64,000 nucleotides of DNA from an uncultured virus (IMG/VR IMGVR_UViG_3300042402_005558). Lineage: Duplodnaviria > Heunggongvirae > Uroviricota > Caudoviricetes. The translations under genes were made by a program, and so were the position numbers. Of this stretch, positions 11,789-61,028 are shown in pieces. Location of the stretch: the IMG/VR virus record IMGVR_UViG_3300042402_005558. One strand, 5' to 3'. Positions within the stretch are counted from its first letter, which is position 1; each line of letters opens with the position of its first letter. A model generated the notes under the pieces. That model was not told the DNA's origin, did not search any database, and saw only the letters and a program-made list of their open reading frames with translations.

Positions 11789-14700
11789 TATGTTCTCCCT
11801 ACTGCTATTTCGACTAATCCAATATGGTCTGAATCGTAGTCTTTGATGGCTTTACCGACCACTGTACCTACCTTGATATCTCCGCTGGCAGCTACTGCCA
11901 CACCTGCTATTCCTGAAGTTATCAATATGTCACCTTTCTTAATCTTTCCTACTACCTTGCAGGGCACACGTCCCTGTAGGGCCACGAGATTTTTCAATCC
12001 CGGACAGGCTTCAAACATGGTATAGGCAGCGGTATTAGAAACAACACCTGCTACTCGGGTATCACCTTTTACGGTGCTAACAGTGACTTCTTTGTCACCG
12101 CCAAACACCAGTACAGTACCTACTTCATACTGTTCATCACCTTCGTAGTTTTCTGCTAGGTCAGCAGAGTATGTGGCTTGAAGTCTCGATTCATTAGGCG
12201 AAGTGCCGGTGAGTGTCCATCTTCCTGTTATTGTACCTGCTGTGGTGTTACCACCAGTGGTTATTTCTGTAATCTGTGCAGTGGTCGCCGTAATAGTTGA
12301 ACAAATTATAGGTGCGTTTGCTGCGCCAGTCTTGTTCTTAAATTCATGTGAATCATTCCAATATGCAATTTTATTGTTGGCGGAAACTGCAGTATCACTT
12401 TGGATTAATATTCCGCCTACCGAATTAAACCCGTAGTATCGAATATAACCACCAGAACCCCCCACTACATCTGTGTCTATGGACAAGTTGGTATCAATCT
12501 TGATACTCTGTACGTCTATGGTTCGACCACCAAAGTCTCCATTTGAGTCTCTGGCTATGAGCTCCGATGCTCCGACTAATGCAGATGATCCTGCTGAAGA
12601 GTTTATTATACTATAATTTACGTCTGCGGTACTACTAACACCACTAACTCGTTTGAGAAATCCCACACTAGAATATTGTGTTTTCTTTATGGATCCGCCT
12701 TCGTCTACCACAGTGCTGAATGCTACTGCGCTAGGCGTAGAAGCAGTCACTGATGAATTACCTACTAAAGTATCTGGAGCCAGTGTTTCTAACTTGCTAA
12801 CAGCAATAGCAGCAGCAGAGTTTATGTCTGCGTTTACTATGCTGGTTGCAAGATTTAATTTACTATATGCAATAGCAGCAGCAGAGTTTATGTCTGCGTT
12901 TACTATGCTAGTTGCAAGATTTAATTTACTATATGCAATAGCAGCAGCAGCATTAATATCACTATTAATGATCGAACCTGCCACAATCTGTGCATTAATC
13001 TGATTAAGTGCAGAATCCACTCCTGTTGTAAGCTCAAAGGCAATATCACCAATTACGCTGGCATTTATAGCAGCATCACCTGAACCAGTGAATACTAGAG
13101 TATCTCCTGCCTTAGCATTAGTTACAGTATAGTCTTGCAAATTACTTGCTGTCAAGCTGCGTAGATTTACAGCATCCTGTGGATCCGTAGGATCTCCAAG
13201 ACTAACGATCTTGTTGTTGGCCATCTGCATGGTTCCCTTCATGGCCAACGTGCCATTAAGGGCCATGAAACCACCTGTGATTGAAGGAATTAACTGCCCA
13301 CTAGACACAGCTGATCCGTCGTGTTGCATGCCTAATCTTCTTTCGATATAGATACGTGCAGCATTTTCTGTAGGCACAGTATCAGTAGCGTTGTCAGTGA
13401 ATCCCGAATCAGTTGAAAATTCACTAATAGGTACGCCACGTTTGAAACCAATACCGTCTAGATTGCTCAGCGCGATGCTGGCAGCAAAGGTCACAGAGCC
13501 TGTGCCTTGGTCAACTCTGAAGTATGGACCCACAGAGAAATTACCAAATTGATCAGTGGTAACATAAAATACACGACCAACATCTCGTTCCTCGACCTCA
13601 GTGTCTTCGTTAAGAGCGTTTACGCTTTGGCCATAAATTTCTTTGGGATAGTTAGTGTCTGCATATGATCCTGTACCTATTTCTAAGAGATCATGACTGG
13701 TTACACGAGTCAGAGAAATACGTATAGTTAAGTTACCTAGAGCACCATTTGATCTTATAGGCACCGCCACTTTGGCAGTATAACTATCTCGATATGCTAT
13801 CAAACTATCTACTAATGGTCTATTCAAATATACTCTTGCAAAAGTAGTATTGGTCACAGCTAACGCATCATACTGTGAGACTACGTACTCCTCACCTTTG
13901 AACATCAATTTACCACCAGTGAGCCTGCTGATATTTTGATCTGGCACAGCTACAACTGGAAATTGTGTATCTCCCGCTCTACCGAATATTCTGGTAACGG
14001 TGTGTGTACCGATCTGGGTACCAGTAGTAGCAATCCCACTTGCTGCTCCGGGGGTCACTGCTAGTGTAAACGTATCAGGTGAGGGGGTAGATTGCACGAA
14101 ATAATTGATGTTTGTACTTACACCTCCAGGTAGTGCACCTGTGGTTTTGAAACAGATAACATCATCGACAGCAAAACCGTGAGCAGTGACAGTGACCACA
14201 CCGGGCGTAGCAATAGTGATTGTGGCACCCAGTTCTCCTCCAGCCACCGCGGTCATTGTACCCGAAGCTGTACTTAGAGTTAAGGTGGCACCGCCTTGTG
14301 TAGCGCTGACAGTGATCTTTGAATCTGGAACCACACGTCCTGCAGCAGCAGCCACCAGAGTAATGGTTCCACTTACTCCTGATGTATAGGTAAAGGTAGT
14401 AGCGTTAGTCACCGTGATTACCACTGCGTTGTCTGAATCTAGTGCAGTACCGGTAGTGTTGATATCTACAGTTTGTCCAGAAGCCAGACCGTGATTTACT
14501 GATGTTACTATGGTAGCAGTAGCACCGGATCTCTCTACTGTGGCAATTGGAATGTTGGCACTAAATGGACTCGACCTTACATAGTATACGGTGCTGGCTG
14601 TAATGCCACCGAATGTAGTGCCTGCAAACACTATAGGCATGCCTGGTTTAACCTGATAACTAATGGTACTGAGAGTAATTAAATTAGTGGTCACAGTGGT

Positions 14701-17700
14701 GTCAGAGGCTACCAGATTATAGATGGCAGTGTCACCTGGTACATTAAGAGTCAATTCTACATAGTCATAGTTTTCTCTGAGATTGGTCTTGGTCAGACCT
14801 TCATGCGTGAGTGTGAATGTACCTAGGCCTACAGAACTAGTATTGATTGCCACTCCATTTTTTGTAGCGGAGACACGGAATTCTGTATCTGTGAGACCGT
14901 CGGGCAACACATAGTATTCAGTTTCTGCAGTGATGCCGGTAGGAACTGCTCCAGTTAAGATCATTGACAACGGTGATGCTATCGTATGACTGTTGTTAAT
15001 GGTCCAGGTTGAGCCAGACCCACTGCTGATTGTGGTCCCAGCAGTGATGCCAAGACCAGTCAAGGTCATACCAGTAGCGATGGTACCGAATGTCAAACTA
15101 ACAATAGTGAGTGTGGTACCGCTGATGGTGGCAGTGAATCCAGCTGTGGATCTAAAACTAATTGTGTAATTTTCTATTAGCTTGTGTGTCTTTACACCCT
15201 GTATGGTTAATCCGCTACCGTTAACAAGGGCATGTACACTACCACCTGACGAAGTGCTGACAGTAAACTGATTGGCTTCTGGAACTGAGATCACGTAATA
15301 CGTAGTTCCACTGACAAACCCATTAGCGGTAGAAGTAGGTATGAACTTATCACCTAATTTTAGTTTGTGATTCTGTTGGGTGGTTACGAGATTATCTGTG
15401 ATAGTGTTCACGGTCACTAAAATCTTAATCACTGCAGGAGATGCATTGGTAATACTAACCGGATAAGGTCCGGTGGTGTCCTCCATGGACGTAAACAGCA
15501 GTACACGATATACCGTGTTACTGGTTTCTCGTAGTTTAAGACCAGTTGATGGACGCACAGCTACATTCTCAAGACCACCAGTAAGTACGATCTGTCCATT
15601 GTTTCTTAGGGTCATCACGGTATTGTCAGGCACAATAGCAAACAGACCGTCGCTTTCTGCTCCGCTCGATCCTGTAGTCAGGTTCAAACGAGCTACACCT
15701 GCGGGGAATGAGTCTTCTTGAGCAACAGTAGTAATAGGATATCTGACGATAATTCCGCCGTGATCTACTTCTAGTTCTGAAGCATTTAATGGTAGATAAT
15801 CATAACCGTAGATATAGATGAACAGGCCATTTAGAGTATTTTCATAGACTGAGTTCGGAAAATAACATTTGACTCTCTGTGCGAATTCTTCAAACACACT
15901 GGTCGGAGTAGGAATTTCTAGTGGATCAAATCCTTCTGCTACCAAGGCATAATTACCATGCGCACTTGATCCTCCTATTGATCTGATCTGTGCGCCATTG
16001 ACACTATAGTAGCTGATGTGGCAATAGTAAGTAAACATGCTCACAGCTTCTACCAACCCGCCATTGATGGCGCAGATACCGTAGCCTAAATCGTTAATCT
16101 GTGTAAAGTCGTTACACAGCATTGATCTGTTACCTGGCATCAAGATCTCATAGATTCGTTGATAGCTGTGAACACCCGAACCAGCACTGGTTGTGTTTAC
16201 TTTAACAGTTGAACCAAATGCGGCATTGATATTGAAGGTGTTATTAGTAAGTCCATCTTCAGCTATAAAATATTCCTGGCCAGCGACTATCCCGCCAGGT
16301 AGTGTGCCTGTGGTACTGAACACCACAGTAGCGCCAGGTTGTAGTCTGTGGGCTACTCTGGTTATCACTGCCGGCGACGCAAAGCTAATGGTACAGGTCT
16401 GTGTGCCTGCTGCACGAGTAAATGGGTTTATATCGTCTAATACAAGATTAGCCGAAGATCCAGCGGGATCGTACACAAAATCTCTAACATAGTTTACACG
16501 GAATACCGAATCATCTACTAAGAAAGAACAGGGCAGTTGAGGGAATCTAGCCAGTCCTGACACACCTAGTGTGAGAAAATCTCCGCTGGTAGTATTGTGA
16601 CGGAATTGCAGATTGCCGGTGAACCCGTCTACAAACATACCACCTGCAAATACTTGACGATCTTTGCTTCTTGAGAATGAAGCACATTCTTGGAAGTATG
16701 GTGACTTGGCCAATATCTGGCCTGTAGGATCTAATATTCCCATGAATCCGCCATGTCCTTGTGCGGTAATAGCCTGCCAGCGCACAGCATCATTAGCCAA
16801 GAACACATCCATCTCTTCGTTGTTTTTGGGTTGATTTACGCTGCCAAATCCGGGTCCACTTTCATCAATGATATTATCAATAGCAGTGATAAGGCTAGAA
16901 ACAACACTGTCCGCACCCACTTCTGCAACAAATGCTTGATCTATGATCTGTGGGAACGTAGGGTTATAAACTGGGGTAATCTCAGTATTATCTATAATAC
17001 TCTGCATCAATTGGTTGAGTTTAACCAATACTTCCTGATATTGTTCTAGCTGTACAGTAATCGCATACTGAGCACTAGCACCTTGATAATATTTCAGTGC
17101 AGCACTGACTGTGCGATTATATTCGCCATACTTGAGGTCAAACACAATGGCATCTACAATTAATCCGATATCGCGTTGACATTTAGATTCTAGATATTCA
17201 AAATTGTACCAGATTGAACCGACACCGGCTACATCAATATTGTTGTTGATCCAAGCAGTGATTTCATTTTGTAGGAATGTTCTGTTTAAATCCAATAGTG
17301 TAGCAGCCGAGTCGTAGTTTCCGGGATTATTAATAGGCGGATACACTGGTGCATCTGTGTCTGACAGATAGTGATAGGCAAACAGTTTATTAGCAGTAGT
17401 TAATCCATCTATGACCAGATCTCTACGGAATTTTTGAAACGCCCAAGGACTCGAACTTACGCCTGGTAATGGTCTAAAAATCACTCTACGAAATTCATCA
17501 CCAACAATAGAACAGTTTTGTGGTACCTTTAACGGATAGTTTTCATAGTATTCTCCGCTTTCTACCAAGATGGAAATCTGAATACTTTTACTGATGTCAC
17601 CGTAGGATATAACTTCATCAGTTACAAAGTTACCAAATTTTATGTCAACGTCGAATATTTCATTGCCATCGCTGTCTAAGGCACCTGTGTGTGATAATAT

Positions 17701-19227
17701 CTGCGCCAAGGCGCCAGAAGTTTCTCCTCGAAGAAACAGACCTTCACGAATATCTCGACCACGTATAGCTTCGGGAGTATTAGTTAAAACGTCTCCGGTG
17801 AAATCAGTTCGGTATCCATCTGTGCGAATCCTAAATCGAGGCAGATTAACTAGCAGAGTTGGCAAGGAAGTAAAACCTGATCCTTTATCAGTGATAGTGA
17901 TACTTGTGATTACCCCACTAGTAACTACAGCAGTACCAAATGCACCACTACCACCACCACCTGTAATGCGCACAGATACTAAACCGTAGCCTGAGCCACC
18001 GCCACCAGGAGCGATAGAGACTGAGGCTACCTTATAGGTTAGATCAAACGATGCTCCAGTGCCAATAGCACCAATGCCCACAGGTGCTGCAGATGTTGAA
18101 ATGACGGTAGATATCGCGGTTGTTCCAGGTAGTGCAGTGTATATTCCGGTAGATATTATTTTAAATGTAGATATAGCACCTGGCGTTGTGAGAGTTGTTA
18201 ACACCTGTATTGTGGCTGTGCCAGTGCCGGTACCACCAACTACTGATAGTATATCACCTGGAAAATAGTTAGTTCCTACTCCGTTGAGTTCGGCAGTGTC
18301 TATACTCATTCTCAGTATACCAGAAAATCCCGAACCCGATCCGGGAGCTTCGCCGATACCATCCAACGTACATGTGCCTAGACCATTATTAAATGTTAAT
18401 ATCTTTTTATAAGGTCCGATTTCTGCCGGACCTTCTAGAACCAATTCTTCTGCACGTTTTAGTGCAGCTTCTAGTGTTCGATAAGCATAAGCCAACGCTC
18501 GTCCCTGTAGAGCTTTGGAAACACCGGGTCTATCATCAGAACCACTTAGAGCCACATAAAGATTCACTGAACTACCAAATGCAGATGAATCAACGTATTG
18601 TTTAGTGGCTGCGATCAATCCACCGTAAAGTTCGTCGTCGTCGGGTTCGGGACTGCGTGATAGTATCAGCGGACCACTCATAGTACCAAAAGAACCGTCT
18701 ACTAGTCCTGTTTCTGGGTTAACAGCAGAAACTCCTGCTCGAGCTATCTTTGAATCTGCATAATTTTTGTTAACCAATTCATGTTTGTAGATGGGGCTTA
18801 ACGGAGATATTGTTGTTCCAGCATCAATAATTCTGTATTGATTTCCACCCGACCTCATGGATAGGTCACCTCCTAACTGAGGAGTAGGATCAGCTACTAT
18901 TTCTGAAAATTCGCTGTTGATAGTGATTTCGTTGGGATTGGTGGTAAAGTCTATGCTGACTCCTGCACCTGCGATCAATCGCTTAAACGACAATCCGGAT
19001 TCTGTGTTGTTAACAGTAACTAATGGAGTGGATCCGGTAACAGGATCGTTCTGACCTACATATGTTTCCGGAGTGTCATCTAGGCCGATAAAAGTGAGGT
19101 TTTCACCTAGCCCTAGAGAACTATAAAGTTCACGGAAGTTGTCGTTGACTTTTCTGAATGAATCTCTTATGCTATCACCGGTACCATCATTGCCAATAGC
19201 ACCGATATCAATTGTCTTTCTTGCCAT
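11788..19227 (-). CDS. Giant (2479 aa) virion structural / tail fibre protein
   Basis: gp9/gp10-like N-terminus, repeated beta-rich domains with YYV motifs, C-terminal ADLAENY..GTVLVFGG..VALQGRVPCKV chaperone-like tail; TAAATA at 19259-19264 (-). Confidence 0.85.
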   Translation of the reverse strand: MARKTIDIGAIGNDGTGDSIRDSFRKVNDNFRELYSSLGLGENLTFIGLDDTPETYVGQNDPVTGSTPLVTVNNTESGLSFKRLIAGAGVSIDFTTNPNEITINSEFSEIVADPTPQLGGDLSMRSGGNQYRIIDAGTTISPLSPIYKHELVNKNYADSKIARAGVSAVNPETGLVDGSFGTMSGPLILSRSPEPDDDELYGGLIAATKQYVDSSAFGSSVNLYVALSGSDDRPGVSKALQGRALAYAYRTLEAALKRAEELVLEGPAEIGPYKKILTFNNGLGTCTLDGIGEAPGSGSGFSGILRMSIDTAELNGVGTNYFPGDILSVVGGTGTGTATIQVLTTLTTPGAISTFKIISTGIYTALPGTTAISTVISTSAAPVGIGAIGTGASFDLTYKVASVSIAPGGGGSGYGLVSVRITGGGGSGAFGTAVVTSGVITSITITDKGSGFTSLPTLLVNLPRFRIRTDGYRTDFTGDVLTNTPEAIRGRDIREGLFLRGETSGALAQILSHTGALDSDGNEIFDVDIKFGNFVTDEVISYGDISKSIQISILVESGEYYENYPLKVPQNCSIVGDEFRRVIFRPLPGVSSSPWAFQKFRRDLVIDGLTTANKLFAYHYLSDTDAPVYPPINNPGNYDSAATLLDLNRTFLQNEITAWINNNIDVAGVGSIWYNFEYLESKCQRDIGLIVDAIVFDLKYGEYNRTVSAALKYYQGASAQYAITVQLEQYQEVLVKLNQLMQSIIDNTEITPVYNPTFPQIIDQAFVAEVGADSVVSSLITAIDNIIDESGPGFGSVNQPKNNEEMDVFLANDAVRWQAITAQGHGGFMGILDPTGQILAKSPYFQECASFSRSKDRQVFAGGMFVDGFTGNLQFRHNTTSGDFLTLGVSGLARFPQLPCSFLVDDSVFRVNYVRDFVYDPAGSSANLVLDDINPFTRAAGTQTCTISFASPAVITRVAHRLQPGATVVFSTTGTLPGGIVAGQEYFIAEDGLTNNTFNINAAFGSTVKVNTTSAGSGVHSYQRIYEILMPGNRSMLCNDFTQINDLGYGICAINGGLVEAVSMFTYYCHISYYSVNGAQIRSIGGSSAHGNYALVAEGFDPLEIPTPTSVFEEFAQRVKCYFPNSVYENTLNGLFIYIYGYDYLPLNASELEVDHGGIIVRYPITTVAQEDSFPAGVARLNLTTGSSGAESDGLFAIVPDNTVMTLRNNGQIVLTGGLENVAVRPSTGLKLRETSNTVYRVLLFTSMEDTTGPYPVSITNASPAVIKILVTVNTITDNLVTTQQNHKLKLGDKFIPTSTANGFVSGTTYYVISVPEANQFTVSTSSGGSVHALVNGSGLTIQGVKTHKLIENYTISFRSTAGFTATISGTTLTIVSLTFGTIATGMTLTGLGITAGTTISSGSGSTWTINNSHTIASPLSMILTGAVPTGITAETEYYVLPDGLTDTEFRVSATKNGVAINTSSVGLGTFTLTHEGLTKTNLRENYDYVELTLNVPGDTAIYNLVASDTTVTTNLITLSTISYQVKPGMPIVFAGTTFGGITASTVYYVRSSPFSANIPIATVERSGATATIVTSVNHGLASGQTVDINTTGTALDSDNAVVITVTNATTFTYTSGVSGTITLVAAAAGRVVPDSKITVSATQGGATLTLSTASGTMTAVAGGELGATITIATPGVVTVTAHGFAVDDVICFKTTGALPGGVSTNINYFVQSTPSPDTFTLAVTPGAASGIATTGTQIGTHTVTRIFGRAGDTQFPVVAVPDQNISRLTGGKLMFKGEEYVVSQYDALAVTNTTFARVYLNRPLVDSLIAYRDSYTAKVAVPIRSNGALGNLTIRISLTRVTSHDLLEIGTGSYADTNYPKEIYGQSVNALNEDTEVEERDVGRVFYVTTDQFGNFSVGPYFRVDQGTGSVTFAASIALSNLDGIGFKRGVPISEFSTDSGFTDNATDTVPTENAARIYIERRLGMQHDGSAVSSGQLIPSITGGFMALNGTLAMKGTMQMANNKIVSLGDPTDPQDAVNLRSLTASNLQDYTVTNAKAGDTLVFTGSGDAAINASVIGDIAFELTTGVDSALNQINAQIVAGSIINSDINAAAAIAYSKLNLATSIVNADINSAAAIAYSKLNLATSIVNADINSAAAIAVSKLETLAPDTLVGNSSVTASTPSAVAFSTVVDEGGSIKKTQYSSVGFLKRVSGVSSTADVNYSIINSSAGSSALVGASELIARDSNGDFGGRTIDVQSIKIDTNLSIDTDVVGGSGGYIRYYGFNSVGGILIQSDTAVSANNKIAYWNDSHEFKNKTGAANAPIICSTITATTAQITEITTGGNTTAGTITGRWTLTGTSPNESRLQATYSADLAENYEGDEQYEVGTVLVFGGDKEVTVSTVKGDTRVAGVVSNTAAYTMFEACPGLKNLVALQGRVPCKVVGKIKKGDILITSGIAGVAVAASGDIKVGTVVGKAIKDYDSDHIGLVEIAVGRT
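12803..12950. repeat. 66-bp intragenic tandem repeat (about 2.2 copies)
   Basis: 12803-12868 and 12869-12934 differ at one base; encodes AAAIAYSKLNLATSIVNADINS. Confidence 0.9.
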
Positions 19228-31097: not shown

Positions 31098-31598
31098 TTA
31101 AGCTTCTTCTTTAGGTTGTTCCTGACAGAGCGACTCCATCAGCTTGTAATGTTCGTAGGCTTTTTTCAGTGCAGCAAACTGTTCTAGTTTCTTAGGATCA
31201 GGAACAAGTATGGCCAAACGTTCTTCCATCTTGTTCATAAACTCTTTGAGACTTTTACCATCTACTTTGATATCAGTGCCAGCAGCCATGTCGATACCAC
31301 CACTTGTGATATTGACACTTGGTGATGTGGTATTGAAGTTATAACCAGTTGTGCCGGTTGTTGTGTAGGTATAAGGAACTGTGGTGCTGCCGAAGGTGAA
31401 CGTGCTGGAATCCAGAGTGATATCGTTCATTGTATCTATGGTATAGATTGGCTGTGCTGCTCCCCCACCTAAGTCAATGGTGATAGTATCAGCACCGTAC
31501 CCAGAACTGATATTACTATAGTCGAGAGCACCAGCACCATATCCATCTAGACTACCAGTTACGGTGTAATCTTTATTCATGTTTTTTTTGTTGGCCAT
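31098..31598 (-). CDS. Hypothetical protein (Thr/Gly-rich N-terminus, helical C-terminus)
   Basis: Operonic; EERLAIL.P...LKKAYEHYK. Confidence 0.7.
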   Translation of the reverse strand: MANKKNMNKDYTVTGSLDGYGAGALDYSNISSGYGADTITIDLGGGAAQPIYTIDTMNDITLDSSTFTFGSTTVPYTYTTTGTTGYNFNTTSPSVNITSGGIDMAAGTDIKVDGKSLKEFMNKMEERLAILVPDPKKLEQFAALKKAYEHYKLMESLCQEQPKEEA

Positions 31599-31601
31599 TT
31601 A

Positions 31602-32168
31602 TTATTTTACCCCAATAATCATAAATCTTCGAAATTGCCAATCTGGATATTCAAATAGTTTTTCACCAGTAAAATAAATCTCAGATAACTTGAAATCTTT
31701 GACAAAGTTTTCTAGAGAATTATGATTATGACAATGATCTTCATGTTTCATGTCGTTGCTTTGTAACACCACTAATGTTCCTTTAGGAATGTTGTCAAAC
31801 CATTCTTGAGATTCAATATGTTCTACGCTGGTGTTTATCACTGTGTCGAAATCATCGATGGTATATTGAAAGTCGTTGGCATCGCCAGTTATACTTTTAA
31901 ATTGCCAATTTTGCCACTCCCAAGAGTTATTGATCTTATCTGCGATTTTTTCAACTTCGGGATCAATATCTAAACTGCGAAAAGTTTTGATTTCAATACG
32001 ATTGCGGATCCTTAATATAAAATTTGTTAGACCATACCAGCCACCTAAACAAAGTATCTGTCTAGGGTGTGCTGGCATGTTAAGTTCTATGATTTTTTCT
32101 AAAGATTCAGCTAACCATAATTTGCTCAATACTTGTCCGCTAGAAAAAGCATCTTGATCAAGATGCAT
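31602..32168 (-). CDS. SAM-dependent methyltransferase-like protein
   Basis: LCLGGWYG glycine loop, SLDID, INTSVEH; more AT-rich than its neighbours. Confidence 0.7.
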   Translation of the reverse strand: MHLDQDAFSSGQVLSKLWLAESLEKIIELNMPAHPRQILCLGGWYGLTNFILRIRNRIEIKTFRSLDIDPEVEKIADKINNSWEWQNWQFKSITGDANDFQYTIDDFDTVINTSVEHIESQEWFDNIPKGTLVVLQSNDMKHEDHCHNHNSLENFVKDFKLSEIYFTGEKLFEYPDWQFRRFMIIGVK

Positions 32169-32362
32169 TATGCACCTTTAGCTTCTTTACGGGCGTTCTT
32201 TTCTTCTGTGATTTCGTTACGACGAGCTTTAACTGCTTTACCTACTTCTTGAAGTGCTTTACGAGCACGAGTACCTGCTGCGTTGTTACCAGCGGCAAAT
32301 TTTGCATCTTCCGCTAAAAAGTTTTCAAATGCTGCTTTGAGTTGTTCTACTGTGTTTGACAT
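32168..32362 (-). CDS. Histone H1-like Hc1-family small basic protein
   Basis: KF..GNNAAGTRARKALQE...K..R.EI motif; SD AAGGA. Confidence 0.8.
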   Translation of the reverse strand: MSNTVEQLKAAFENFLAEDAKFAAGNNAAGTRARKALQEVGKAVKARRNEITEEKNARKEAKGA

Positions 32363-32404
32363 AATGTTTTCCTTAAGTTATGTTCTACTACTTATTGTAG
32401 TAAT

Positions 32405-32515
32405 TGGTGTGGTCGGTAGGTTTCGAACCTACAAAGGCTACGAACTACGTCAGCGCCCCGTCCCCATTCTGGACTATGGGTCCAGCGGGAGCTTTGCCAA
32501 TTTGCTCACGACCAC
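32405..32515 (-). ncRNA. tRNA-like RNA (111 nt) with an expanded, pseudoknotted anticodon arm
   Basis: Acceptor GTGGTCG/CGACCAC-A-CCA; D-arm AGC/GCT with GG; T-arm GTAGG-TTCGAAA-CCTAC; long variable arm; 31-nt anticodon domain. Confidence 0.8.
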
Positions 32516-32521
32516 AGCTTT

Positions 32522-32550
32522 ATTATATAACAAAATCATTCTTATTGCAA
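32522..32550 (-). promoter_or_regulatory. Sigma70-type promoter for the tRNA-like RNA
   Basis: TTGCAA-N17-TATAAT; predicted +1 falls at about 32515, the first base of the acceptor stem. Confidence 0.75.
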
Positions 32551-32628
32551 TACTTTTATAGAAAATTTTGAAGAAAATTACTCAAGGATATATAGTGTAG
32601 CGATTTAAATTTATGGAGATCGAATTAA

Positions 32629-33648
32629 ATGAAATTAAAATTTTTGCCATTTCTGTGTCTTTTTGGAGTTTCTGCCGCCTACGCACAGGTTACGGTATAC
32701 GGTGTAATTGACACAAGCATACAGTCCTACAACAACGGAACCTCTAGTTTTACTAGAGCGGCTGATAGTCAATATAGCACGAGTCGTTTAGGGTTTAGAG
32801 GCACAGAAGACCTCGGAGGAGGGCTAAGTACCTTTTTTCAAATAGAAGGAACGTTGAATCCCTCCACAGGATCAATGGGGTCTACCACTGTAGCTGCTAA
32901 TGAAATTTTCAATAGAGATGCGCATATTGGTATCAAGTCTTCGTTGGGATCAATTAGAATGGGACGAACTGATGTGGCTCTAGTAGGAGAGATGGATATA
33001 TTTGTATCACAATCTGGAAACTTTGGTATGCATCCAACTAACGGTACCAGTGTTGAATTGGGTACTGATCAAAAAAACGTGGTCAGATATGACAGTCCAG
33101 TTTATGGAGGATTTCAACTCATAGTGGGTCATGCTACCAACAACGTAGGAGCAACCACAGATGCCAATGCAGATCAAAATGGAGTGGCTCTAAGATACGA
33201 AGCAGGCAAAGTAAAGGCAGGAATAGGCTATCAGAAAAATCAAGGTGTGGGTGTGGCAGCACGTGAGACCACGACTGCAGGGTTGGCCTATGATTTTTCT
33301 GTGTTATCAGTTGGTACTGCCTATGCAAGAGGTGATAATTCAACTACCGCTGATGTGACTAGTTCGACATGGGTAACCTCAGTAAGGGTACCGTTGCAGC
33401 AACAGTATGCTGCTCATGTCGTATATGCGCACAGCTCAAATGGTTCCAGCACTACTAACAACAAAGGCAACGGTGTTACATTAGCGGTTACCAAAGACCT
33501 AAGTAAACGCACCACACTTTATGGAGCATATAGCAAAGTCTATAATCAATCTAACTCGTCTATGACCATGTTCAATGCAACAAGTGCTCCGGCAACAGCC
33601 GGTTTAGATACCAGTTCATTAGGACTAGGAATCAGCCATCGTTTTTAA
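32629..33648 (+). CDS. Gram-negative (Burkholderiales-type) outer membrane porin
   Basis: Signal peptide, VTVYGVID, SRLGFRGTEDLGGGL, LSKRTTLY and C-terminal GISHRF. Confidence 0.93.
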   Translation: MKLKFLPFLCLFGVSAAYAQVTVYGVIDTSIQSYNNGTSSFTRAADSQYSTSRLGFRGTEDLGGGLSTFFQIEGTLNPSTGSMGSTTVAANEIFNRDAHIGIKSSLGSIRMGRTDVALVGEMDIFVSQSGNFGMHPTNGTSVELGTDQKNVVRYDSPVYGGFQLIVGHATNNVGATTDANADQNGVALRYEAGKVKAGIGYQKNQGVGVAARETTTAGLAYDFSVLSVGTAYARGDNSTTADVTSSTWVTSVRVPLQQQYAAHVVYAHSSNGSSTTNNKGNGVTLAVTKDLSKRTTLYGAYSKVYNQSNSSMTMFNATSAPATAGLDTSSLGLGISHRF

Positions 33649-34441: not shown

Positions 34442-34969
34442 ATGAACAAAAAAACAAATCTAATTTACCAACCTAAATTAGATTTAAATCTAGAAGAAAT
34501 CAAAGAAATAGTTTTTCTAAATCAGTTTTCATCCGATAAAAATCTGAATGCTTCCCATCATAGATCAGTGTCAGATCATCCTTATCTACAAAAAATACAA
34601 TCTAAGTATCCGTTTTTAAGCAGCATTTATAATATATATACTCTACCAGGAAATCGTAAAATTCCTTTGCACGTTGATGCTCAACGATCAGCGGCGTTGA
34701 ATATACCTATTGAGAACACCGAAGACAGCGTAACAATTTTCTATGAGCATGTTAAAGATCCAATTTTAGAATATGATTCTAAAAACGTTTATAATTTAAT
34801 CAAGTCGGAAGTAACGGAACTTTTTAGATTTACTTTGCTAGAACCTACGTTGATCAATAATTCAATTCCCCACATGGTTATTAACAATAGTTCAAAACCA
34901 AGAATAATTCTTAGTTGGAGTGTCAATAAAGAATTTAAATTTGAAGATGTCCGAGATAAATTTCAATGA
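34442..34969 (+). CDS. 2OG-Fe(II)/cupin-like dioxygenase
   Basis: LHVD..ALNIP...PHMV.N...R; TAAATA at 34397-34402. Confidence 0.7.
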   Translation: MNKKTNLIYQPKLDLNLEEIKEIVFLNQFSSDKNLNASHHRSVSDHPYLQKIQSKYPFLSSIYNIYTLPGNRKIPLHVDAQRSAALNIPIENTEDSVTIFYEHVKDPILEYDSKNVYNLIKSEVTELFRFTLLEPTLINNSIPHMVINNSSKPRIILSWSVNKEFKFEDVRDKFQ

Positions 34970-35496
34970 ATAATTTTTATCATCCGGTTGAATTGCCTTT
35001 TTCTATCGATCTCGATCTTACGGAGTTTGTCGATCAACAGACCAAATGTAATATCAATTTGTTGCCCGAAAAAGTGCACCAATGGCTAGAAAATACGCTT
35101 GATGCCGTGGTATTATGGACAGAGATATTTTATCTACCACCAAATCGATCGTATGATATACACTGCGACGGACACGAAATTGATAATAAATGCAAATTAA
35201 ATTACATTATCAATGGCAATGACAGCGTAATGCATTGGTATAAAGCCGCAGACCATAATAAAATAATATACGCCTACAGCAAATCTAATACTAGATATCT
35301 CAAATTAGAAAAAACCAATGCTGAAGAAATTTGTCAAGCGACTCTGATTAATCTAAATCTTGTAAATGTCGGTGATTTTCATACAGTAGTAAATGGTAAA
35401 AATGATCGATGGTGTATTAGTATTGTTGTCGGAGATAAAATTACCAAAGACAGATTAAACTATAACGAGGTAAAATCTAGATTAAATATAGAATGA
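34966..35496 (+). CDS. 2OG-Fe(II)/cupin-like dioxygenase
   Basis: IHCD..KLNY...FHTV.N...R. Confidence 0.7.
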   Translation: MNNFYHPVELPFSIDLDLTEFVDQQTKCNINLLPEKVHQWLENTLDAVVLWTEIFYLPPNRSYDIHCDGHEIDNKCKLNYIINGNDSVMHWYKAADHNKIIYAYSKSNTRYLKLEKTNAEEICQATLINLNLVNVGDFHTVVNGKNDRWCISIVVGDKITKDRLNYNEVKSRLNIE

Positions 35497-36017
35497 ATAC
35501 CTGTTACGTTGAATTAGATATTAAAATCCATCCACTCAAAGAATCTATTAATTCGGTTAACTTAGATACATTTTTAGAAAATCAAATGACCCAAGTTAGG
35601 GATATTTCTGAACTGAATAATGAACTAGTAGATTTTTTACACAGTTGTAAAATTTCAATAAGGCCAAAGTGGTTATTAATTTATTGGTTTGGTGATAAAG
35701 TAACATTTCCTCATACCGACGGCTTTAGAAATACTGCATTAAACTGGAATTTTACTCCGGGATCTTGGGTCGAGTTCTATGAAAAAATTCCAGGAAATGA
35801 TTATATAAGATCACAGGATACTACAAATATATTTTGGAAAACTTCGTCAGAACCTATAGCAATATGGGATTCTCTCGGTCCAGCACTAATCAATACACAG
35901 ATTCCTCATACAGTCAAAAACATAAATCAAACTGTGCGTAGACTAACATACAGTATTGGATTTGATGAACCTTATTTTTCTGTTAAAGAAAAACTAAAAG
36001 ACTATTTAAAAAAATGA
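35493..36017 (+). CDS. 2OG-Fe(II)/cupin-like dioxygenase (paralogue A)
   Basis: PHTDG..LNWNFTPG...PHTV..R. Confidence 0.7.
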   Translation: MNTCYVELDIKIHPLKESINSVNLDTFLENQMTQVRDISELNNELVDFLHSCKISIRPKWLLIYWFGDKVTFPHTDGFRNTALNWNFTPGSWVEFYEKIPGNDYIRSQDTTNIFWKTSSEPIAIWDSLGPALINTQIPHTVKNINQTVRRLTYSIGFDEPYFSVKEKLKDYLKK

Positions 36018-36571
36018 ATACCTGTTACATCAAGTTAGCATTAGATATATTTCCTTTCAGTCATCCAGTGGATTATCTATTAAACAACGATTGGCCAGAA
36101 AATCGCATGGACAAATTGCATTCTACTGAGTATCTTAATCCAGAATTAATTGAGTGTTTCCAAGAAAACAATGTGAAATTAAGAAATACATTTTTAATGA
36201 TCAATTGGTGGACATTAAGACCTAGGCCTCCACACACAGACGGAAATTGGTTTTCTGACGATGGCGTTGTCGCAAAAAGACAATGTGGAATTAATTGGAA
36301 TTTTACTCCCGGAACCTGGGTGGAATTTTACAGCGAAGAAAATGCCACACCGAAATTTGATCCTAAGGGAAGAATCGATGATGCCACAGTTTGGCCAGAC
36401 GCAAGAACAGTCATTGATAAATGGGACACTCCCGGACCGGTGATTTTTAATCCTCAAATTATCCATAGAGTAAAAAGTTTTCCTCACATCCAAAGACGAG
36501 TGGCCTGTACTCTGAGGTTTGACGAAACTTTTGAATCTCTAGGTGAAAAGCTATCTAAATATATAAAATAA
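36014..36571 (+). CDS. 2OG-Fe(II)/cupin-like dioxygenase (paralogue B)
   Basis: PHTDG..INWNFTPG...IHRV..R. Confidence 0.7.
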   Translation: MNTCYIKLALDIFPFSHPVDYLLNNDWPENRMDKLHSTEYLNPELIECFQENNVKLRNTFLMINWWTLRPRPPHTDGNWFSDDGVVAKRQCGINWNFTPGTWVEFYSEENATPKFDPKGRIDDATVWPDARTVIDKWDTPGPVIFNPQIIHRVKSFPHIQRRVACTLRFDETFESLGEKLSKYIK

Positions 36572-37116
36572 TGTTTACTTCTATACAACTACCTTATACT
36601 AAATTCGTTCCCGATAACACCGCGACCACATATTATATCGCGGCCATTCATTCAGCAAGTCCGTGGATAGAAGAATTTAACTTACAAGATGTGTGTAGAG
36701 GTAGAGACATACGCTGTGTTGTTGGCTGGATTAAGCCCAGACACAGAATGCCTATACATGTAGACATGGGAGATCATGGACCTACTCCATGGGCATTAGA
36801 TTTTACCACAGATGAATTCAAACATGCAGAACTTGAGATATACAAAAATTTAGATAAGTTAAACAGGCCAACCGGAAATTTAGTTGCTCCCCCAAACAAT
36901 TCCTACGGAATACCTATCATTAAACCAGAAAATGCCGAATTAATAGATTCATGGTCATTTACTAAAGGTGCTGTTAAATTTACCCCCGGAACAAACTGGC
37001 ACACTGGGTATAATCCTGATCCAGAAAAATGGATGGCAGTTGTAAGTTTAAGAAGTTTTTTTATCGAAGACTGGTACGCTATAGAGGAAAAATTACAATC
37101 AGTGAGTGTGCTGTAA
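36571..37116 (+). CDS. 2OG-Fe(II)/cupin-like dioxygenase
   Basis: IHVD...WHTGYN...SLR. Confidence 0.65.
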   Translation: MFTSIQLPYTKFVPDNTATTYYIAAIHSASPWIEEFNLQDVCRGRDIRCVVGWIKPRHRMPIHVDMGDHGPTPWALDFTTDEFKHAELEIYKNLDKLNRPTGNLVAPPNNSYGIPIIKPENAELIDSWSFTKGAVKFTPGTNWHTGYNPDPEKWMAVVSLRSFFIEDWYAIEEKLQSVSVL

Positions 37117-38418: not shown

Positions 38419-38619
38419 ATGATTGTTGACAAAAAAAATTTTATTTTGGGTATCCTTTTTATTTCTATAGGCCTGTTATTTTTCTACGAATCGTTATTTT
38501 ACATGTCTTCTCTGCAAGATTTTTCGCAGATCCCTCCTGGATTCTTTCCTTCGGGTCTCTCCGCTATCCTGGCAGTTAACGGTTTGATTTTAATTTTTTC
38601 ATCTGTAAAATGGAAATAA
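38419..38619 (+). CDS. tctB: Shortened TctB-like membrane protein
   Basis: Two TM helices with PPGFFP; directly upstream of and overlapping tctA. Confidence 0.6.
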   Translation: MIVDKKNFILGILFISIGLLFFYESLFYMSSLQDFSQIPPGFFPSGLSAILAVNGLILIFSSVKWK

Positions 38620-40106
38620 TACAGCAGGCCCTCATGTATGGCAGTGAAGCATTTTCTTTACAGAATTTGTTGTATTGCTTTGCTGGTGTTTTCTTAGGCA
38701 CATTGGTAGGAGTGTTGCCGGGACTAGGCCCAGCCACATCAATGAGTATCCTGTTGCCAGGTGTTTTAATGATACCAAATCCGGTAACAGCGATAATTTT
38801 TTTAGCAGGAATATATTATGGAACTCAATACGGTGGTTCTATCACGGCAATTTTATTGAAACTGCCAGGAGAAGCATCATCTGTTGTAATAGTAAATGAC
38901 GGGTATGCATTGTCACAAATGGGTAAATCAGGCACAGCACTTTCTATCTCAGCCATTGGCTCATTTGTGGCAGGAACTTTCTCTACCATAGCTATAGCAT
39001 TGTTTGCCGTGCCTGCATCTCAGCTGGCATTCTATTTTGGTCCTGTAGAATATGCATCCTTAATGGGGTTGGGATTGTTATCCGTAATAGTGTTGGGTGG
39101 AGATTCTTTTTTGAAATCTTTTTCAATGGTGATGCTAGGACTGCTGCTATCAACCATAGGATACGATGTGAATTCTGGAATAGAAAGGATGACATTTGGG
39201 ATACCTGCATTAGGTGAAGGTTTGCCTTTTGTAATATTAGCGATGTCTGTTTTTGGTATTGCTGAAGTATTTTATAATTTTATTTGCCAAGAAAAAGAAA
39301 TCATTATAGAAAAATGTTCTGGTTTAAAATTTAAAGACATGTATCCCACGAAGGAAGAAATAGGGATCGCAATTATGCCTATATTAAGAGGTACAGTTAT
39401 TGGATCGGTGTTGGGCATTCTTCCAGGAGCAGGTCCAATTCTGGCTTCTGTGGTAAGTTATGCCTTAGAAAAAAGAATTAGTAAGCATCCAGAAAAATTT
39501 GGAAAAGGAGCAATCGAAGGCATTGCTTCTCCTGAAAGCGCCAACAACGCTTCGGCTCAGACTAGTTTTATTCCTTTGCTAAGTTTCGGAATACCCACTG
39601 GTCCTACCATGGCAATAATTTTAAGCGTTCTTTTACTTTTCGGACTCCAGCCAGGTCCTCAACTGATTTCTTTCAATCCTGGATTGTTTTGGACTCTAAT
39701 TGTTTCTATGTGGATCGGGAATTTCTTCTTAATAATTTTAAATCTTCCGTTGATCAGCTTATGGGTTAGTATTACTAGAATTCCTCAAAGTGTATTAAGT
39801 ATTATAATATTGCTGACGTGTTTAATTGCTGCATATGTAGTAACTCAGAGTTGGCTTATAATGGGATTGTTATTACCCCTTTCAATCGCCGCAGTTGTGT
39901 TGAAATTATTAGATTGTGATCCCTCACCTGTGTTATTAAGTTTTGTTATAGGAAAGATGTTTGAAGAACATCTAAGGCGATCTTTAATTATTAGTAGAGG
40001 AGATTGGTTTATATTTTTAGATAAACCTATATCTATGACATTTATTTTAATAGCTGTCATGATGATAGTTTGGTATTACATTGTCAAGAAGAAAAAGATT
40101 ATATAA
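38610..40106 (+). CDS. tctA: Tripartite tricarboxylate transporter large permease
   Basis: [27 protein letters not shown] and GIP motifs; polytopic membrane protein. Confidence 0.95.
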
Positions 40107-46354: not shown

Positions 46355-47281
46355 ATGAAAAGAATTTTAGTTTGGTTGGCGATGATTTTTGTAACAAATC
46401 CACTGTGGGCAAACCCCACCGTAGAAATTCCAAAAGATGTTAATATCTTAGTACCGTATGGTCCGGGCGGAATTTCAGATATACAGGTGCGTCATCTTTC
46501 ACTGTGGCTGGCAAAAAGAGGAATCAATTTGAATCCTATTTACAAGCCTGGAGGTAACAGCACAATAGCCGCAAATGAATTAGCAACATCAAATAAAGAC
46601 GGATCTGTGTTGATGATAAATTCAACCAGCAATTCATGGTTAGCTAAAGAACGATTAAGTAGAGAAGTAATCGATCCGATTGTGACCACTGGCGGAAATG
46701 CTAATGCTTTCATAACATTTCCTGGTAGCAGGTATGAAAATTACAATGATTTCGTTCGTATTCTTAAATCCAACGATCCAGAAACAAAAATAGGTTGGCA
46801 TGCGGTGGCCAATCTCATAAATCTAAATCAGCTTGTAGAAAAACTCGAAGCGCCTAAACCTCTGCTAATACCGTACAAAACATCAACCGAGTCAAGTAGA
46901 GATGTGGCAGGAAAACATATTCCGTTGGCATTGGTTCCCATGTCAACGGCATTGCCTTTGGCAGAATCCGGGAAGGTTAAAATTATCTTTGGTTTTTCTG
47001 CAGGCAAGTCTGGGTTACCGACGGGTGTCTTAGATCTCAAAAGTAAAATACCTTCGTGGCAACACGGCGAATTGTTTTTTATTGGATTACCACCAGGGAC
47101 TGATAAAAAAGTACATAATGCATGGTCTACACTTTTAAAAGAATATCTAAATGATAAACAAACAGAAGATACCTACACTAAGGCTTATTTCGGAAAAGAT
47201 GTTGGAGATCGTGAATACGTGTTTGAAGTTATCAACCGACAGAGTGAGTTGATCAAAAAATATAAAATAGAATTCAAATAA
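46355..47281 (+). CDS. tctC: TctC/Bug family periplasmic substrate-binding protein
   Basis: Signal peptide, VPYGPGG.SD, KPGG, IPYK, DVAG and LPPGT motifs. Confidence 0.85.
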   Translation: MKRILVWLAMIFVTNPLWANPTVEIPKDVNILVPYGPGGISDIQVRHLSLWLAKRGINLNPIYKPGGNSTIAANELATSNKDGSVLMINSTSNSWLAKERLSREVIDPIVTTGGNANAFITFPGSRYENYNDFVRILKSNDPETKIGWHAVANLINLNQLVEKLEAPKPLLIPYKTSTESSRDVAGKHIPLALVPMSTALPLAESGKVKIIFGFSAGKSGLPTGVLDLKSKIPSWQHGELFFIGLPPGTDKKVHNAWSTLLKEYLNDKQTEDTYTKAYFGKDVGDREYVFEVINRQSELIKKYKIEFK

Positions 47282-47472: not shown

Positions 47473-48245
47473 TGGATCCAAAAATTTATGAATCGAGAGC
47501 TAGGTATCATTCTTTGCCTGCTGATTTTCAATATCAAGGGGCTGAAAAGTACCAAAGCAATTTAGAATATATCAAAGAAAATTTCAGCAGTTATCATTTC
47601 GATAAATGGAAAAAAGAAGAAGAAGGAGATTGGTATCATCAGTTAGGAAGATTTGAATTAGACCCAGAGATACCAAAAATCATTCCTTGGCTGATTGAAA
47701 AATCCAAAGATGTAGGTTGGTCAGACCTTTCGAAAATCGGTGTCCATCCAGGGTTCCCTGGTGGAGTGAGTCCTCTTCAAAATCAAGAAGATTACGATCT
47801 AGAACAAAGCGGAGTAACAAACGATTTTGTTCAAATGGTTCCGGAACCAGACATGTGTCATATTCCTTCCTTACAGAAGATGGGAGAATATTGGAAGTTC
47901 AAAAGATTAAGAACTCGAGTGCATGTGCAAATGCCCGGACAGCTATTTACTTGGCACGTAGACAAACTTTGGCACAGGAATCCGTTGGCTCCGCATAAAA
48001 TGTCTAGAATGGTAATATTTTTAGAAGATTACGAGCCGGGACAGATAATGGTTTATGGTAATTCTGTTCTAACACAGTGGCGTGCCGGTGATGTACATAT
48101 TTTTGACACGTTAAATATTCCTCACTGTACTGCAAACATGAGTTATAAACCTAGAGTGGTAATGATTATAACCGCAGTTCGTACAGACGAGAGCGATAAA
48201 ATTCTAAAAGACTGTACCGCAGATACTATACATCGGTATACTTAA
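47472..48245 (+). CDS. 2OG-Fe(II)/cupin-like dioxygenase
   Basis: PGQ..WHVD...WRAGD...PHCTAN...R. Confidence 0.75.
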   Translation: MDPKIYESRARYHSLPADFQYQGAEKYQSNLEYIKENFSSYHFDKWKKEEEGDWYHQLGRFELDPEIPKIIPWLIEKSKDVGWSDLSKIGVHPGFPGGVSPLQNQEDYDLEQSGVTNDFVQMVPEPDMCHIPSLQKMGEYWKFKRLRTRVHVQMPGQLFTWHVDKLWHRNPLAPHKMSRMVIFLEDYEPGQIMVYGNSVLTQWRAGDVHIFDTLNIPHCTANMSYKPRVVMIITAVRTDESDKILKDCTADTIHRYT

Positions 48246-54699: not shown

Positions 54700-54721
54700 A
54701 AAATTTTAAAAGGTATATTTG

Positions 54722-55687
54722 ATGAAAAAAATTTTATTTACTTTGTTTTTAATCTGCAACGGAGTTATCAATGCTCACGCATGGCAGCCGAATCAACCGG
54801 TAAACATCTACATAGGTGCTGGTCCAGGAACCACAGCAGAAATCGCACTAAGGCGAGTCACAGATGACATTACCAAAAGAACCAACGTTTCTTTTAGTTA
54901 CCACTATAAACCAGGTCCGGGACAGGTAGAGGTAACAAACAATTTCATATCTATGCCAAATGATGGACATCATATGTTGATGCCTTTTTTTGGTGATGTA
55001 TTTATTTGGAGCGAAATTGTATTCAAAGATAGAGTTAAATGGAACGCAGATAGTTTTGAATATGTAATTGGATTACCATCTGATCCTGCAGTTATTATCT
55101 CTCCAATTAATAGTCCAGTGAACAATCCCAAAGAGTTAATTCAATATTTAAACTTGAATAATAAAAATTTAAATTTTGGCACAGCCACTGGTACGCAAGC
55201 AATACCGTATTATTCTATCATGCATCACAGTAAAGCCGATAAGTCTAAAGTAAAAGAAATTAGATATAAAGCAGCAAGAGAAGTAATGATGGACGTTGCT
55301 TCCGGAAATTTAGATTTCGGAGTAATACCTGCAGGGCTGATAAAGACCGCAGAATCAACTGGAAAAATTAAAATAATAGGCATCACAGCAAATTCGCCTT
55401 TTGCGACTTCCCCTCAGTATCAAGTTTTTAATAGAGAAATTAAAGATTTGAATTTCTATATCTACAGGCTGATTGTTTTGCCTCCTAAGACAAAACCAGA
55501 AATCGTAGCATGGTTTAATAAAGAAATGCGAGTGGCTCTGGAAAACCCGGTAATATCTAAAAGTTTCGAAGATAATTTTGAAACAATAGAAAAAGAATAC
55601 CTTAGCCCCAACGGAATCAAAAAAGTTATACTAGATGCCAAAAAACTATATCAGCCGTTGGCTGAAAGGACAGTGGTTCAAAAATAG
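54722..55687 (+). CDS. tctC: TctC/Bug family periplasmic substrate-binding protein
   Basis: Signal peptide AHA-WQP, GPG, KPG, DGH, YK...DVASG and LPPKT motifs. Confidence 0.85.
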   Translation: MKKILFTLFLICNGVINAHAWQPNQPVNIYIGAGPGTTAEIALRRVTDDITKRTNVSFSYHYKPGPGQVEVTNNFISMPNDGHHMLMPFFGDVFIWSEIVFKDRVKWNADSFEYVIGLPSDPAVIISPINSPVNNPKELIQYLNLNNKNLNFGTATGTQAIPYYSIMHHSKADKSKVKEIRYKAAREVMMDVASGNLDFGVIPAGLIKTAESTGKIKIIGITANSPFATSPQYQVFNREIKDLNFYIYRLIVLPPKTKPEIVAWFNKEMRVALENPVISKSFEDNFETIEKEYLSPNGIKKVILDAKKLYQPLAERTVVQK

Positions 55688-60954: not shown

Positions 60955-61028
60955 TGGTGCTCTCAGGTGGTAATGCTCCACCGTTTCTACATTACCAATG
61001 TAGTGTAATGCTTTTATACTATGAGAGC
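60955..61028 (-). tRNA. tRNA-Thr(GGT) with non-canonical D- and T-loops
   Basis: GCTCTCA/TGAGAGC-A-CCA; anticodon arm CTACA-TTGGTAA-TGTAG; T-loop AGCATTA. Confidence 0.8.

Follow-up and report, generated by a model that had tools for sequence, protein, structure and literature searches.

A conserved tRNA-Leu-like RNA encoded ahead of an Hc1-like gene in uncultured freshwater phages

The window analyzed here is a stretch of 64,000 nucleotides from an uncultured virus of the Caudoviricetes (IMG/VR record IMGVR_UViG_3300042402_005558), with a GC content of 39.8%. Its source is a large myovirus-like freshwater phage, and the window carries PhoH, ThyX, porin, TctA/TctC, QueC-like and PTPS-like genes along with T4-like baseplate signatures. 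ARAGORN calls five ordinary tRNAs in the rest of the window and none at 32405-32515, where the minus strand holds the tRNA-Leu-like RNA that is the subject of this work. In the direction of transcription the features of the locus are as follows.

32545..32550, minus strand: sigma-70-type -35 box, TTGCAA, which with the -10 box makes 10 of 12 consensus matches across a 17-nt spacer
32522..32527, minus strand: -10 box, TATAAT, 6 bases before the first G of the RNA (32515)
32405..32515, minus strand: tRNA-Leu-like RNA, 111 nt, 3' end ACCA (family covariance model R1, 106.2 bits, E 1e-26)
32509..32515, minus strand: acceptor stem, 5' strand, pairing with 32409-32415
32490..32506, minus strand: D-arm, a 3-bp stem and the 11-nt loop AAAUUGGCAAA
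32463..32489, minus strand: long arm of 27 nt in place of the anticodon arm
32469..32485, minus strand: distal hairpin of the long arm, CUGGAC / CCAUA / GUCCAG
32460..32462, minus strand: 3-nt linker GAC from the long arm to the variable arm (columns 61-63 of alignment A2, see below)
32434..32459, minus strand: variable arm of 26 nt, with a 5-bp base, an internal loop, a 3-bp tip and a GUA triloop
32416..32432, minus strand: T-arm, GUAGG UUCGAAA CCUAC, with U48 at 32433
32405..32415, minus strand: acceptor stem, 3' strand (32409-32415), discriminator A73 (32408) and encoded CCA (32405-32407)
32385..32404, minus strand: trailer hairpin with a conserved AUAAGUA, between the CCA and the ribosome-binding site of the Hc1-like gene
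32168..32362, minus strand: Hc1-like (histone H1-like) gene, 64 aa (Pfam PF07432, E 1.5e-14)
32149..32166, minus strand: terminator-like hairpin and T run, just past the stop of the Hc1-like gene

The minus-strand sequence quoted in the original prediction is exactly what positions 32405-32515 read, and the parts that it named, a perfect 7-bp acceptor stem, A73, an encoded CCA, the GG of the D-loop, a canonical T-arm and a long variable arm, are all present. It had also expected ARAGORN and Rfam to make no call on the RNA, and both are silent. No Rfam family is named at the element, either at the gathering thresholds or at E-values up to 10, and under the same two settings the window copy does not match the tRNA family RF00005. 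One homologue, variant e47, just reaches the RF00005 cut-off, at 29.3 bits against 29. The only Rfam match listed is a chance-level one to FtrA, on the opposite strand.

Folded as a single sequence the RNA only modestly beats its shuffles (z = -2.2), and the case for it thus depends on its relatives. From uncultured phage contigs among the matches listed we extracted 74 distinct variants of 96-114 nt, counting variants instead of loci since some loci are one contig retrieved twice. Two alignments were used, A1 with the 23 variants of the window's subtype and A2 with all 74. With 106 bits under R1 and 74 distinct homologues the element stands far above chance, and all whole-structure measures lie above the shuffles and the slid controls in both A1 and A2. 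The tRNA-Leu-like RNA is a genuine, conserved element.

A 24-mer taken from the long middle arm is found in 21 IMG/VR stretches, and a scan with the conserved 3' end of the element matched at least 120 further ones. In blastn comparisons the 3' third of the element is conserved and the 5' two-thirds are divergent. The nearest record, G001, is 100% identical across the element and therefore adds no variation. Each of four related phage records holds exactly one copy, at 98-117 bits under R1. Searching 50,697 cultured phage records by blastn gave no match to the element, and for the surrounding 2.2-kb region the sole match among them is the histone H1 gene of Synechococcus phage S-SRM01. This is the only cultured phage sharing the Hc1-like gene, and R1 finds no copy of the RNA in it. 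A cellular origin was considered and rejected, as a search of 185,579 species, each represented by one genome, gave 0 matches to the T-arm and acceptor pattern. We likewise looked for, and rejected, relatives whose acceptor stem is a different one; the best of 80 loci with the same T-arm junction reach at most 46.4 bits, compared to 82-123 bits for members. We found no account of such a phage RNA in the literature outside subscription journals and supplements.

The covariation favors a class II cloverleaf, and the support comes from the acceptor stem, the 26:44 pair, the distal hairpin and the 5-bp base of the variable arm. In A2 (n = 74) the acceptor stem is paired in 100% of cells and 3 of its 7 pairs change on both sides, and within the window's subtype (A1, n = 23) two-sided changes are also seen at 3 of the 7. 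The variable arm's base is paired in 98.9% of cells with two-sided changes in 4 of 5 pairs (A2), and in 2 of 3 pairs when only the window's subtype is considered (A1). The variable arm measures 24-27 nt in 72 of the 74 variants and ends in an N-U-A triloop in 73, making it more constrained than the middle arm. The distal hairpin has 99.3% of its cells paired, with 4 of 6 pairs changing on both sides (A1, n = 23). At the linker the middle position is an A in 61 of 74 variants. The D-stem is less regular, with its third pair formed in 10 variants and the other 64 needing a bulged U to restore it.

The T-stem shows no variation at all in the 74 R1-positive loci of a set anchored on the Hc1-like protein, which were retrieved through the protein with no RNA pattern used. 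This constancy is not an artefact of our search pattern, because all of these protein-fetched loci match the pattern too. Taken together, we are highly confident of the anatomy, which is the body of a class II leucine tRNA with a closed helix replacing the anticodon arm.

That closed helix is made up of a CCC/GGG base that includes the 26:44 pair, an AA(U) bulge on the 3' side and the distal 6-bp hairpin. Folded alone, the middle arm gives an irregular helix of 8-11 pairs with its extra bases on the 3' side near the base. The closing 26:44 pair is C-G in 68 variants, G-U in 4 and G-C in 2. The original prediction had the anticodon arm as abnormal, and this extends to the homologues, where the arm is 26-27 nt, not 17 nt, in 68 of 74; the remaining six measure 12, 21, 23, 25, 25 and 28 nt, the 12-nt arm being that of variant e72. 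What caps the arm varies widely. A GNRA-type tetraloop is found in 35 variants (GUGA in 12, GCGA in 9, GGGA in 6, GAGA in 5, and GAAA, GUAA and GCAA in 1 each), a CCAUA, CUAUA or CCACA cap in 17, and a 3-nt CAU cap from UCAUA loops in 6, with CUA, UUUUU, UUAG and others making up the rest. The CCAUA loop of the window belongs to one subtype (n = 23) with the loop YYAYA, and the CAU named in the original prediction is not kept, given that the subtype has CCAUA, UCAUA, CUAUA or CCACA loops and that GNRA caps are found in roughly half of the variants as a whole. The middle arm is constrained in length and free in sequence and cap.

The family has no anticodon arm of the normal kind, 17 nt long with a loop of 7 nt, and no anticodon that is consistent among its members. 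ARAGORN in its default mode calls none of the 74 variants, and its tmRNA search (-m) calls none either. Since there is no anticodon loop, decoding and the replacement of a depleted tRNA are both impossible for this RNA. In the related phages no tRNA is missing, their records having 27 and 35 ordinary tRNAs, with Leu(UAG, UAA, CAA), Ser(GCU, UGA) and Tyr(GUA) all present.

Several comparisons point to leucine as the identity of the tRNA body. The D-loop of the window copy is identical to that of tRNA-Leu(CAA) in the related phage record G002, and the majority D-loop of the family is that of tRNA-Leu(UAG) in the same record. G002 has A73 in its Leu and Tyr tRNA genes and G73 in its Ser tRNA genes. 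The best match to R1 in G002 outside the family is again tRNA-Leu(UAG), at 40.7 bits. Among the 80 phage loci with the same T-arm junction, the top 10 non-member matches to R1 are 6 tRNA-Leu, 2 tRNA-Tyr and 2 uncalled Leu-like genes. The signal is not uniform, however, as the best non-member matches in another related record, G004, are an odd 96-nt tRNA and tRNA-Ser(GCU).

The leucine determinants of E. coli, as set out in parts of PMC9976931, are A73, A15-U48, G18G19, A20a, U8:A14, G18:U55, G19-C56 and U54:A58; the same parts describe the anticodon and the long variable arm as dispensable for leucine identity, and a tRNA-Leu without its anticodon arm as still charged. For Aquifex, passages of PMC2377443 agree with E. 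coli on leucine identity and give the anticodon arm a role in editing. All bases of the PMC9976931 set are present in the tRNA-Leu-like RNA, the tertiary pairs being read from the sequence. Positions A14, A15, G18, G19, A20a and A21 show no change in any of the 74 variants, nor do U8, U48, U54, U55, C56, A58 and A73, and A73 is equally constant in the 74 loci that were retrieved through the protein alone. Given that every determinant is present and that LeuRS ignores the anticodon and the variable arm, leucylation is probable, and we expect, with some reserve, that the RNA would be charged by the host LeuRS. The original prediction's description of the locus as a tRNA mimic which may be aminoacylated and is unable to decode fits every finding and would be our description as well.

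Transcription would start from the promoter named in the original prediction, TTGCAA-N17-TATAAT, which we confirmed and which puts +1 at about the first G as judged from spacing. A TTGnnn-N17-TATAAT or TATACT promoter lies at an equal distance in nearly all 74 variants. Sixteen runs recorded as RNA contain part of the stretch. Four of these, from four metatranscriptome studies, were compared at the level of contigs, whose depth cannot rank genes and whose gaps, such as the one upstream of 32545, are uninformative. Contigs from all four studies, which sampled freshwater, cover the element, and loose contig ends show relatives with the GNRA-type arm. Contigs from two of the studies end at 32405, which is the CCA end, one of them within a letter (records 8, 16 and 17), a result that hints weakly at 3'-end processing. 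One of the contigs (record 16) extends 16 nt beyond the proposed start, followed by 465 letters unlike the sequence, so that read-through or DNA in the library is possible. The tRNA-Leu-like RNA is probably expressed, on the evidence of contigs from libraries that may contain DNA.

Our preferred reading, which we put forward tentatively, is that the locus, present in a single copy, encodes a mimic of class II tRNA-Leu that does not decode and acts as a decoy for a host factor reading tRNA bodies. Host RNA polymerase would start at the first G from the consensus sigma-70 promoter, the 3' end would be formed at the CCA, and the same transcript would continue into the Hc1-like gene. LeuRS would read A73 and the core of the D- and T-loops, ignoring the anticodon and the variable arm, and would leucylate the RNA, which host enzymes would then handle as a tRNA even though it does not decode. 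In this form it could soak up a factor that recognizes class II tRNA bodies, such as a defence nuclease or toxin directed at tRNAs, and would present double-stranded RNA at the place where an anticodon loop is cut. With a helix there instead of a loop, the RNA would be hard to cleave. Bacterial Schlafen nucleases, according to parts of PMC13056530, cleave the anticodon arms of host and phage tRNAs.

The precedent for such a role lies in the tRNAs that phages express against tRNA-cutting defences, for which a decoy or a supplement role is discussed in parts of PMC13096335, PMC11464382 and PMC11555353. The tRNA-Leu-like RNA shares its phage-expressed class II tRNA shape with the tRNA-Tyr of T5 and T6, which acts against retron-Eco7 and Septu PtuAB, and with the T5 tRNA that acts against PARIS. 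The anti-defence tRNAs of T5 and T6 are functional decoders with changed loops, whereas the RNA described here has no anticodon, so that among the anti-defence roles only that of decoy is open to it. We prefer the decoy reading because a non-decoder cannot supplement the tRNA pool and because of this precedent. The decoy role taken alone is argued from analogy, and we would hold it somewhat more loosely still. If a decoy is read by its body only, there is no explanation for why the long arm keeps so strict a length or why the N-U-A triloop of the variable arm is conserved, nor does a decoy role account for the near-constant position ahead of the Hc1-like gene. A more specific version is possible but doubtful, in which the RNA would be an uncleavable, leucine-charged "dummy" class II tRNA whose length-matched helix lets it bind an immune nuclease or toxin and escape destruction, making it a dedicated RNA sponge against tRNA-targeting immunity. 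Such a dummy tRNA may be a member of a wider, undescribed set of remodeled tRNA-Leu genes in huge phages.

The position ahead of the Hc1-like gene favors a rival reading in which the element acts in cis as a leader of the Hc1-like mRNA, whether as a CCA processing site, as a stable 5' structure or as a means of timing or limiting Hc1, with the released RNA having no job of its own. The gene downstream is indeed Hc1-like, as had been claimed for it. We took the best 80 loci of at least 578 confirmed IMG/VR relatives of its protein, and in 75 of these 80 the element is present on the same strand. Of these, 74 are matches to R1, and the 75th is cut by the end of its contig with the last 8 nt of the element visible. 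The element ends 19-44 nt before the Hc1 start in 71 of the 74 and lies 1.4 kb upstream in the other 3. In the window, the minus strand from 31500 to 32800 has no terminator-like site other than the one after the Hc1-like gene, and hence none between the two genes. RNA contigs join the 3' part of the RNA to the Hc1 leader or the 5' end of the gene (records 1 and 5-7), and the arms of the trailer hairpin between the two covary among variants, as judged by eye. The Hc1-like gene is probably on the same transcript as the tRNA-Leu-like RNA. The AUAAGUA of the trailer was also considered as a general (late) promoter motif and rejected, with 2 occurrences in the window against about 13 expected.

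Despite this close association the two genes can be separated. Five of the best 80 Hc1 loci (of at least 578) do not have the element, and 4 of these 5 have a promoter of their own, which indicates that the phage clade can dispense with the element at that place. No copy was found elsewhere on these five contigs, which are fragments of 3-12%. Additionally, 7 of the 74 variants precede genes other than Hc1, one of them followed 8 nt later by tRNA-Arg(UCG), and the 3 loci at 1.4 kb also count against a leader. A processing signal, moreover, does not need invariant leucine-identity positions, A73 or an encoded CCA. For these reasons we regard a role limited to the Hc1-like mRNA as unlikely.

Quite unlikely, in our view, is that the RNA sequesters or misdirects LeuRS, EF-Tu or the ribosome, slowing or biasing host translation and not serving in counter-defence. 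The complete set of leucine determinants, the normal acceptor stem and T-arm and the strong, early-type promoter would all suit this, and the conserved arm length would keep the L-shape roughly tRNA-sized. However, the phage needs the same apparatus, and the 27-35 tRNAs of its relatives, three tRNA-Leu genes included, would face the competition.

A third possibility is that the charged RNA would serve as a leucyl donor outside translation, for instance when L/F-transferase tags proteins that are to be degraded, or for a phage enzyme, the lack of an anticodon keeping it off the ribosome. Its charging is probable from sequence and its non-decoding status is clear, and the earlier sequence-only reading had proposed a donor role for an adjacent enzyme island. 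No such enzyme is seen beside the element or in the four related records. The neighboring ORFs, searched against Pfam, PHROGs, NCBIfam and PADLOC, match no family besides Hc1, ThyX, porin and QueC-like. In the four related records, which are 10-80% complete, none of the searches for L/F-transferase (PF03588), for a class I synthetase of the Leu/Ile/Val type or for a CCA-adding enzyme gave a match. An ordinary Leu-tRNA would also suffice as a donor, and we consider this role decidedly improbable.

It has also been suggested that the extra sequence is a removable insert of a tRNA that matures into a decoder, and a decaying tRNA pseudogene is another option of this kind. With introns allowed, ARAGORN calls do cover the element from end to end in 72 of 74 variants; the related phages also have further odd, over-long tRNA genes. 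But the 73 of 74 calls that can be forced with introns allowed and a lowered threshold spread over 11 isotypes, and the intron calls vary between variants in place, length and anticodon, which leaves neither an anticodon that is conserved nor an insert or splice site that is consistent. An insert of this length is too short for a self-splicing intron. A pseudogene is hard to reconcile with four helices that show compensatory changes, with the conservation of the promoter and with the single copy in each genome. Either form of this explanation is very improbable.

Equally improbable is the original proposal that the anticodon arm forms an H-type pseudoknot in which the loop sequence CCCAU pairs with a downstream AUGGG. 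The window and 2 further variants have this pairing in perfect form, and C-to-U changes in the loop would preserve it as G-U wobbles, although they fit the absence of pairing equally well. Among the 23 homologues of the window's type, 0 of the 5 proposed pairs show a two-sided change, while 10 of 23 leave A41-U52 unpaired and 2 of 23 leave 42-51 unpaired. The pairing is not conserved across the family, as the 51 variants that are not of the window's type mostly have GNRA or other caps, and the 3' GGG stays in the subtypes with GNRA or U-rich loops.

The retention of this GGG is accounted for by the base helix of the arm, with its covarying outer pair (32-59), and the GGG and U that the pseudoknot would need are already used there. 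In 6 of 74 variants the outermost CCC/GGG pair is no longer C-G and has become G-U or G-C. Where a variant has a U next to the GGG, it is paired by RNAfold to the G of CCCG (CCCG/UGGG) and the AA bulge remains. The CCG/CGG base drawn earlier has 0 of 3 pairs with a two-sided change and is no better supported than the CCC/GGG base. As drawn, the pseudoknot also has a link of 0 nt from stem 1 to stem 2 and of 1 nt back, and by general stereochemical rules linkers of 0 and 1 nt would not span the 5-bp stems of a classical H-type pseudoknot.

Among known systems the decoy candidate can be compared to the class II tRNA-Leu of bacteria and phages (RF00005), with which it shares a 7-bp acceptor stem, A73, CCA, a 3-bp D-stem, an 11-nt D-loop, a long variable arm and a canonical T-arm. 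It differs in its lack of both a 17-nt anticodon arm and a conserved 7-nt loop or anticodon, the middle arm being closed and 26-27 nt long, and in a variable arm of 24-27 nt, about twice that of the tRNA-Leu of related phages. Parts of PMC2481249 describe tmRNA as tRNA-shaped and aminoacylatable and as having no anticodon. The likeness to its tRNA-like domain lies in just this, a tRNA shape without an anticodon. In tmRNA the alanine identity resides in G3-U70, there is no D-stem, and a long mRNA-like part carries the tag reading frame. In contrast, the 3:70 pair of the present family is G-C throughout (74 of 74), the RNA here measures 111 nt and the tmRNA search of ARAGORN is silent. The tRNA-like modules of bacterial Y RNAs (YrlA) and the tRNA-like 3' ends of plant viruses are also comparable, as cases of mimicry outside decoding. 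Y RNAs end in a Ro-binding stem and not in an acceptor stem, the plant-virus elements are genome 3' ends with pseudoknotted acceptor stems, and no Rfam family of either kind matches the element.

To our knowledge, where phage tRNAs have been described as weapons against tRNA-cutting immunity, every case is a working tRNA. A conserved and expressed phage RNA that retains all that a synthetase needs and has given up its anticodon would separate being a tRNA for the enzymes of the cell from decoding. It would also give a clean tool for finding host factors that read tRNA bodies, and would point to a class of phage RNAs that is systematically overlooked by tRNA-gene finders.

The stretch between the CCA end of the element (the tRNA-Leu-like RNA) and the ribosome-binding site of the Hc1-like gene holds a second RNA structure, the trailer hairpin.

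Window 32385-32404, minus strand: trailer hairpin with an invariant AUAAGUA

The arms of this hairpin, judged by eye, covary among the relatives. AUAAGUA is scarce in the window, where we count 2 occurrences against about 13 expected, and it is therefore a local signal. Eight of the element variants (e34, e36, e40, e47, e49, e59, e61 and e71) have an additional G+C-rich hairpin of about 30 nt placed 3' of the element and 5' of the trailer hairpin, as can be seen in phage loci L138 and L140; this extra hairpin is a possible terminator or processing site.

On its other side the element has a porin gene immediately upstream of its promoter, one of four host-like envelope and transport genes in the window.

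Window 32629-33648: Gram-negative porin
Window 38610-40106: TctA
Window 46355-47281: TctC-like receptor
Window 54719-55687: TctC-like receptor

The Synechococcus phage S-SRM01 likewise has a porin close to its histone H1 gene. Further ORFs of the window are as follows.

Window 34442-37116, plus strand: row of five adjacent ORFs, each 174-185 aa long
Window 56654-58702, minus strand: 682-aa protein with an Mtd_N domain at its start (E 5e-11)
Window 11788-19227, minus strand: 2479-aa ORF

The ends of the five consecutive ORFs touch or overlap, and none of the five has a family match in Pfam, PHROGs, NCBIfam or PADLOC. Mtd_N (major tropism determinant) occurs in targets of diversity-generating retroelements. 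The sole family match of the 2479-aa ORF is in its first 40 residues, which resemble the N-terminus of T4 gp9/gp10, and the ORF presumably encodes a giant baseplate or fibre protein.

Further tRNA genes of note lie in the window and in two related phage records, G002 and G004.

Window 60958-61028, minus strand: sixth tRNA (Rfam, 51.1 bits)
G004 48028-48123 (L259:1501-1596): 96-nt tRNA (RF00005, 59.7 bits)
G002, L241:2863-2954: 92-nt gene called tRNA-Ile(UAU) by ARAGORN

The sixth tRNA adjoins tRNA-Arg within the tRNA cluster at 60.9-63.8 kb; ARAGORN calls neither it nor the 96-nt tRNA of G004. The RF00005 score of the latter depends on allowing an insertion of 25 nt in its D-loop region. The insertion folds into a hairpin of 5 bp capped by a 7-nt loop, and this gene may have two candidate anticodon arms.

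Six over-long tRNA-like genes, 102-137 nt in length and different from the element, are found on other large phage contigs.

L286:192-318: over-long tRNA-like gene
L329:108-230: over-long tRNA-like gene
L330:192-314: over-long tRNA-like gene
L319:94-230: over-long tRNA-like gene
L306:129-230: over-long tRNA-like gene
L301:192-306: over-long tRNA-like gene

All six share the T-arm of the element and most have a Leu-type D-arm; a second T-arm-like hairpin lies inside three of them, and none encodes CCA. With introns allowed, ARAGORN gave no intron-free call for any of the six: the genes in L329 and L330 received no call at all, and those in L286, L319, L306 and L301 were called as intron-containing tRNAs of four different isotypes. 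Possibly these genes represent additional types of remodelled tRNA-Leu.
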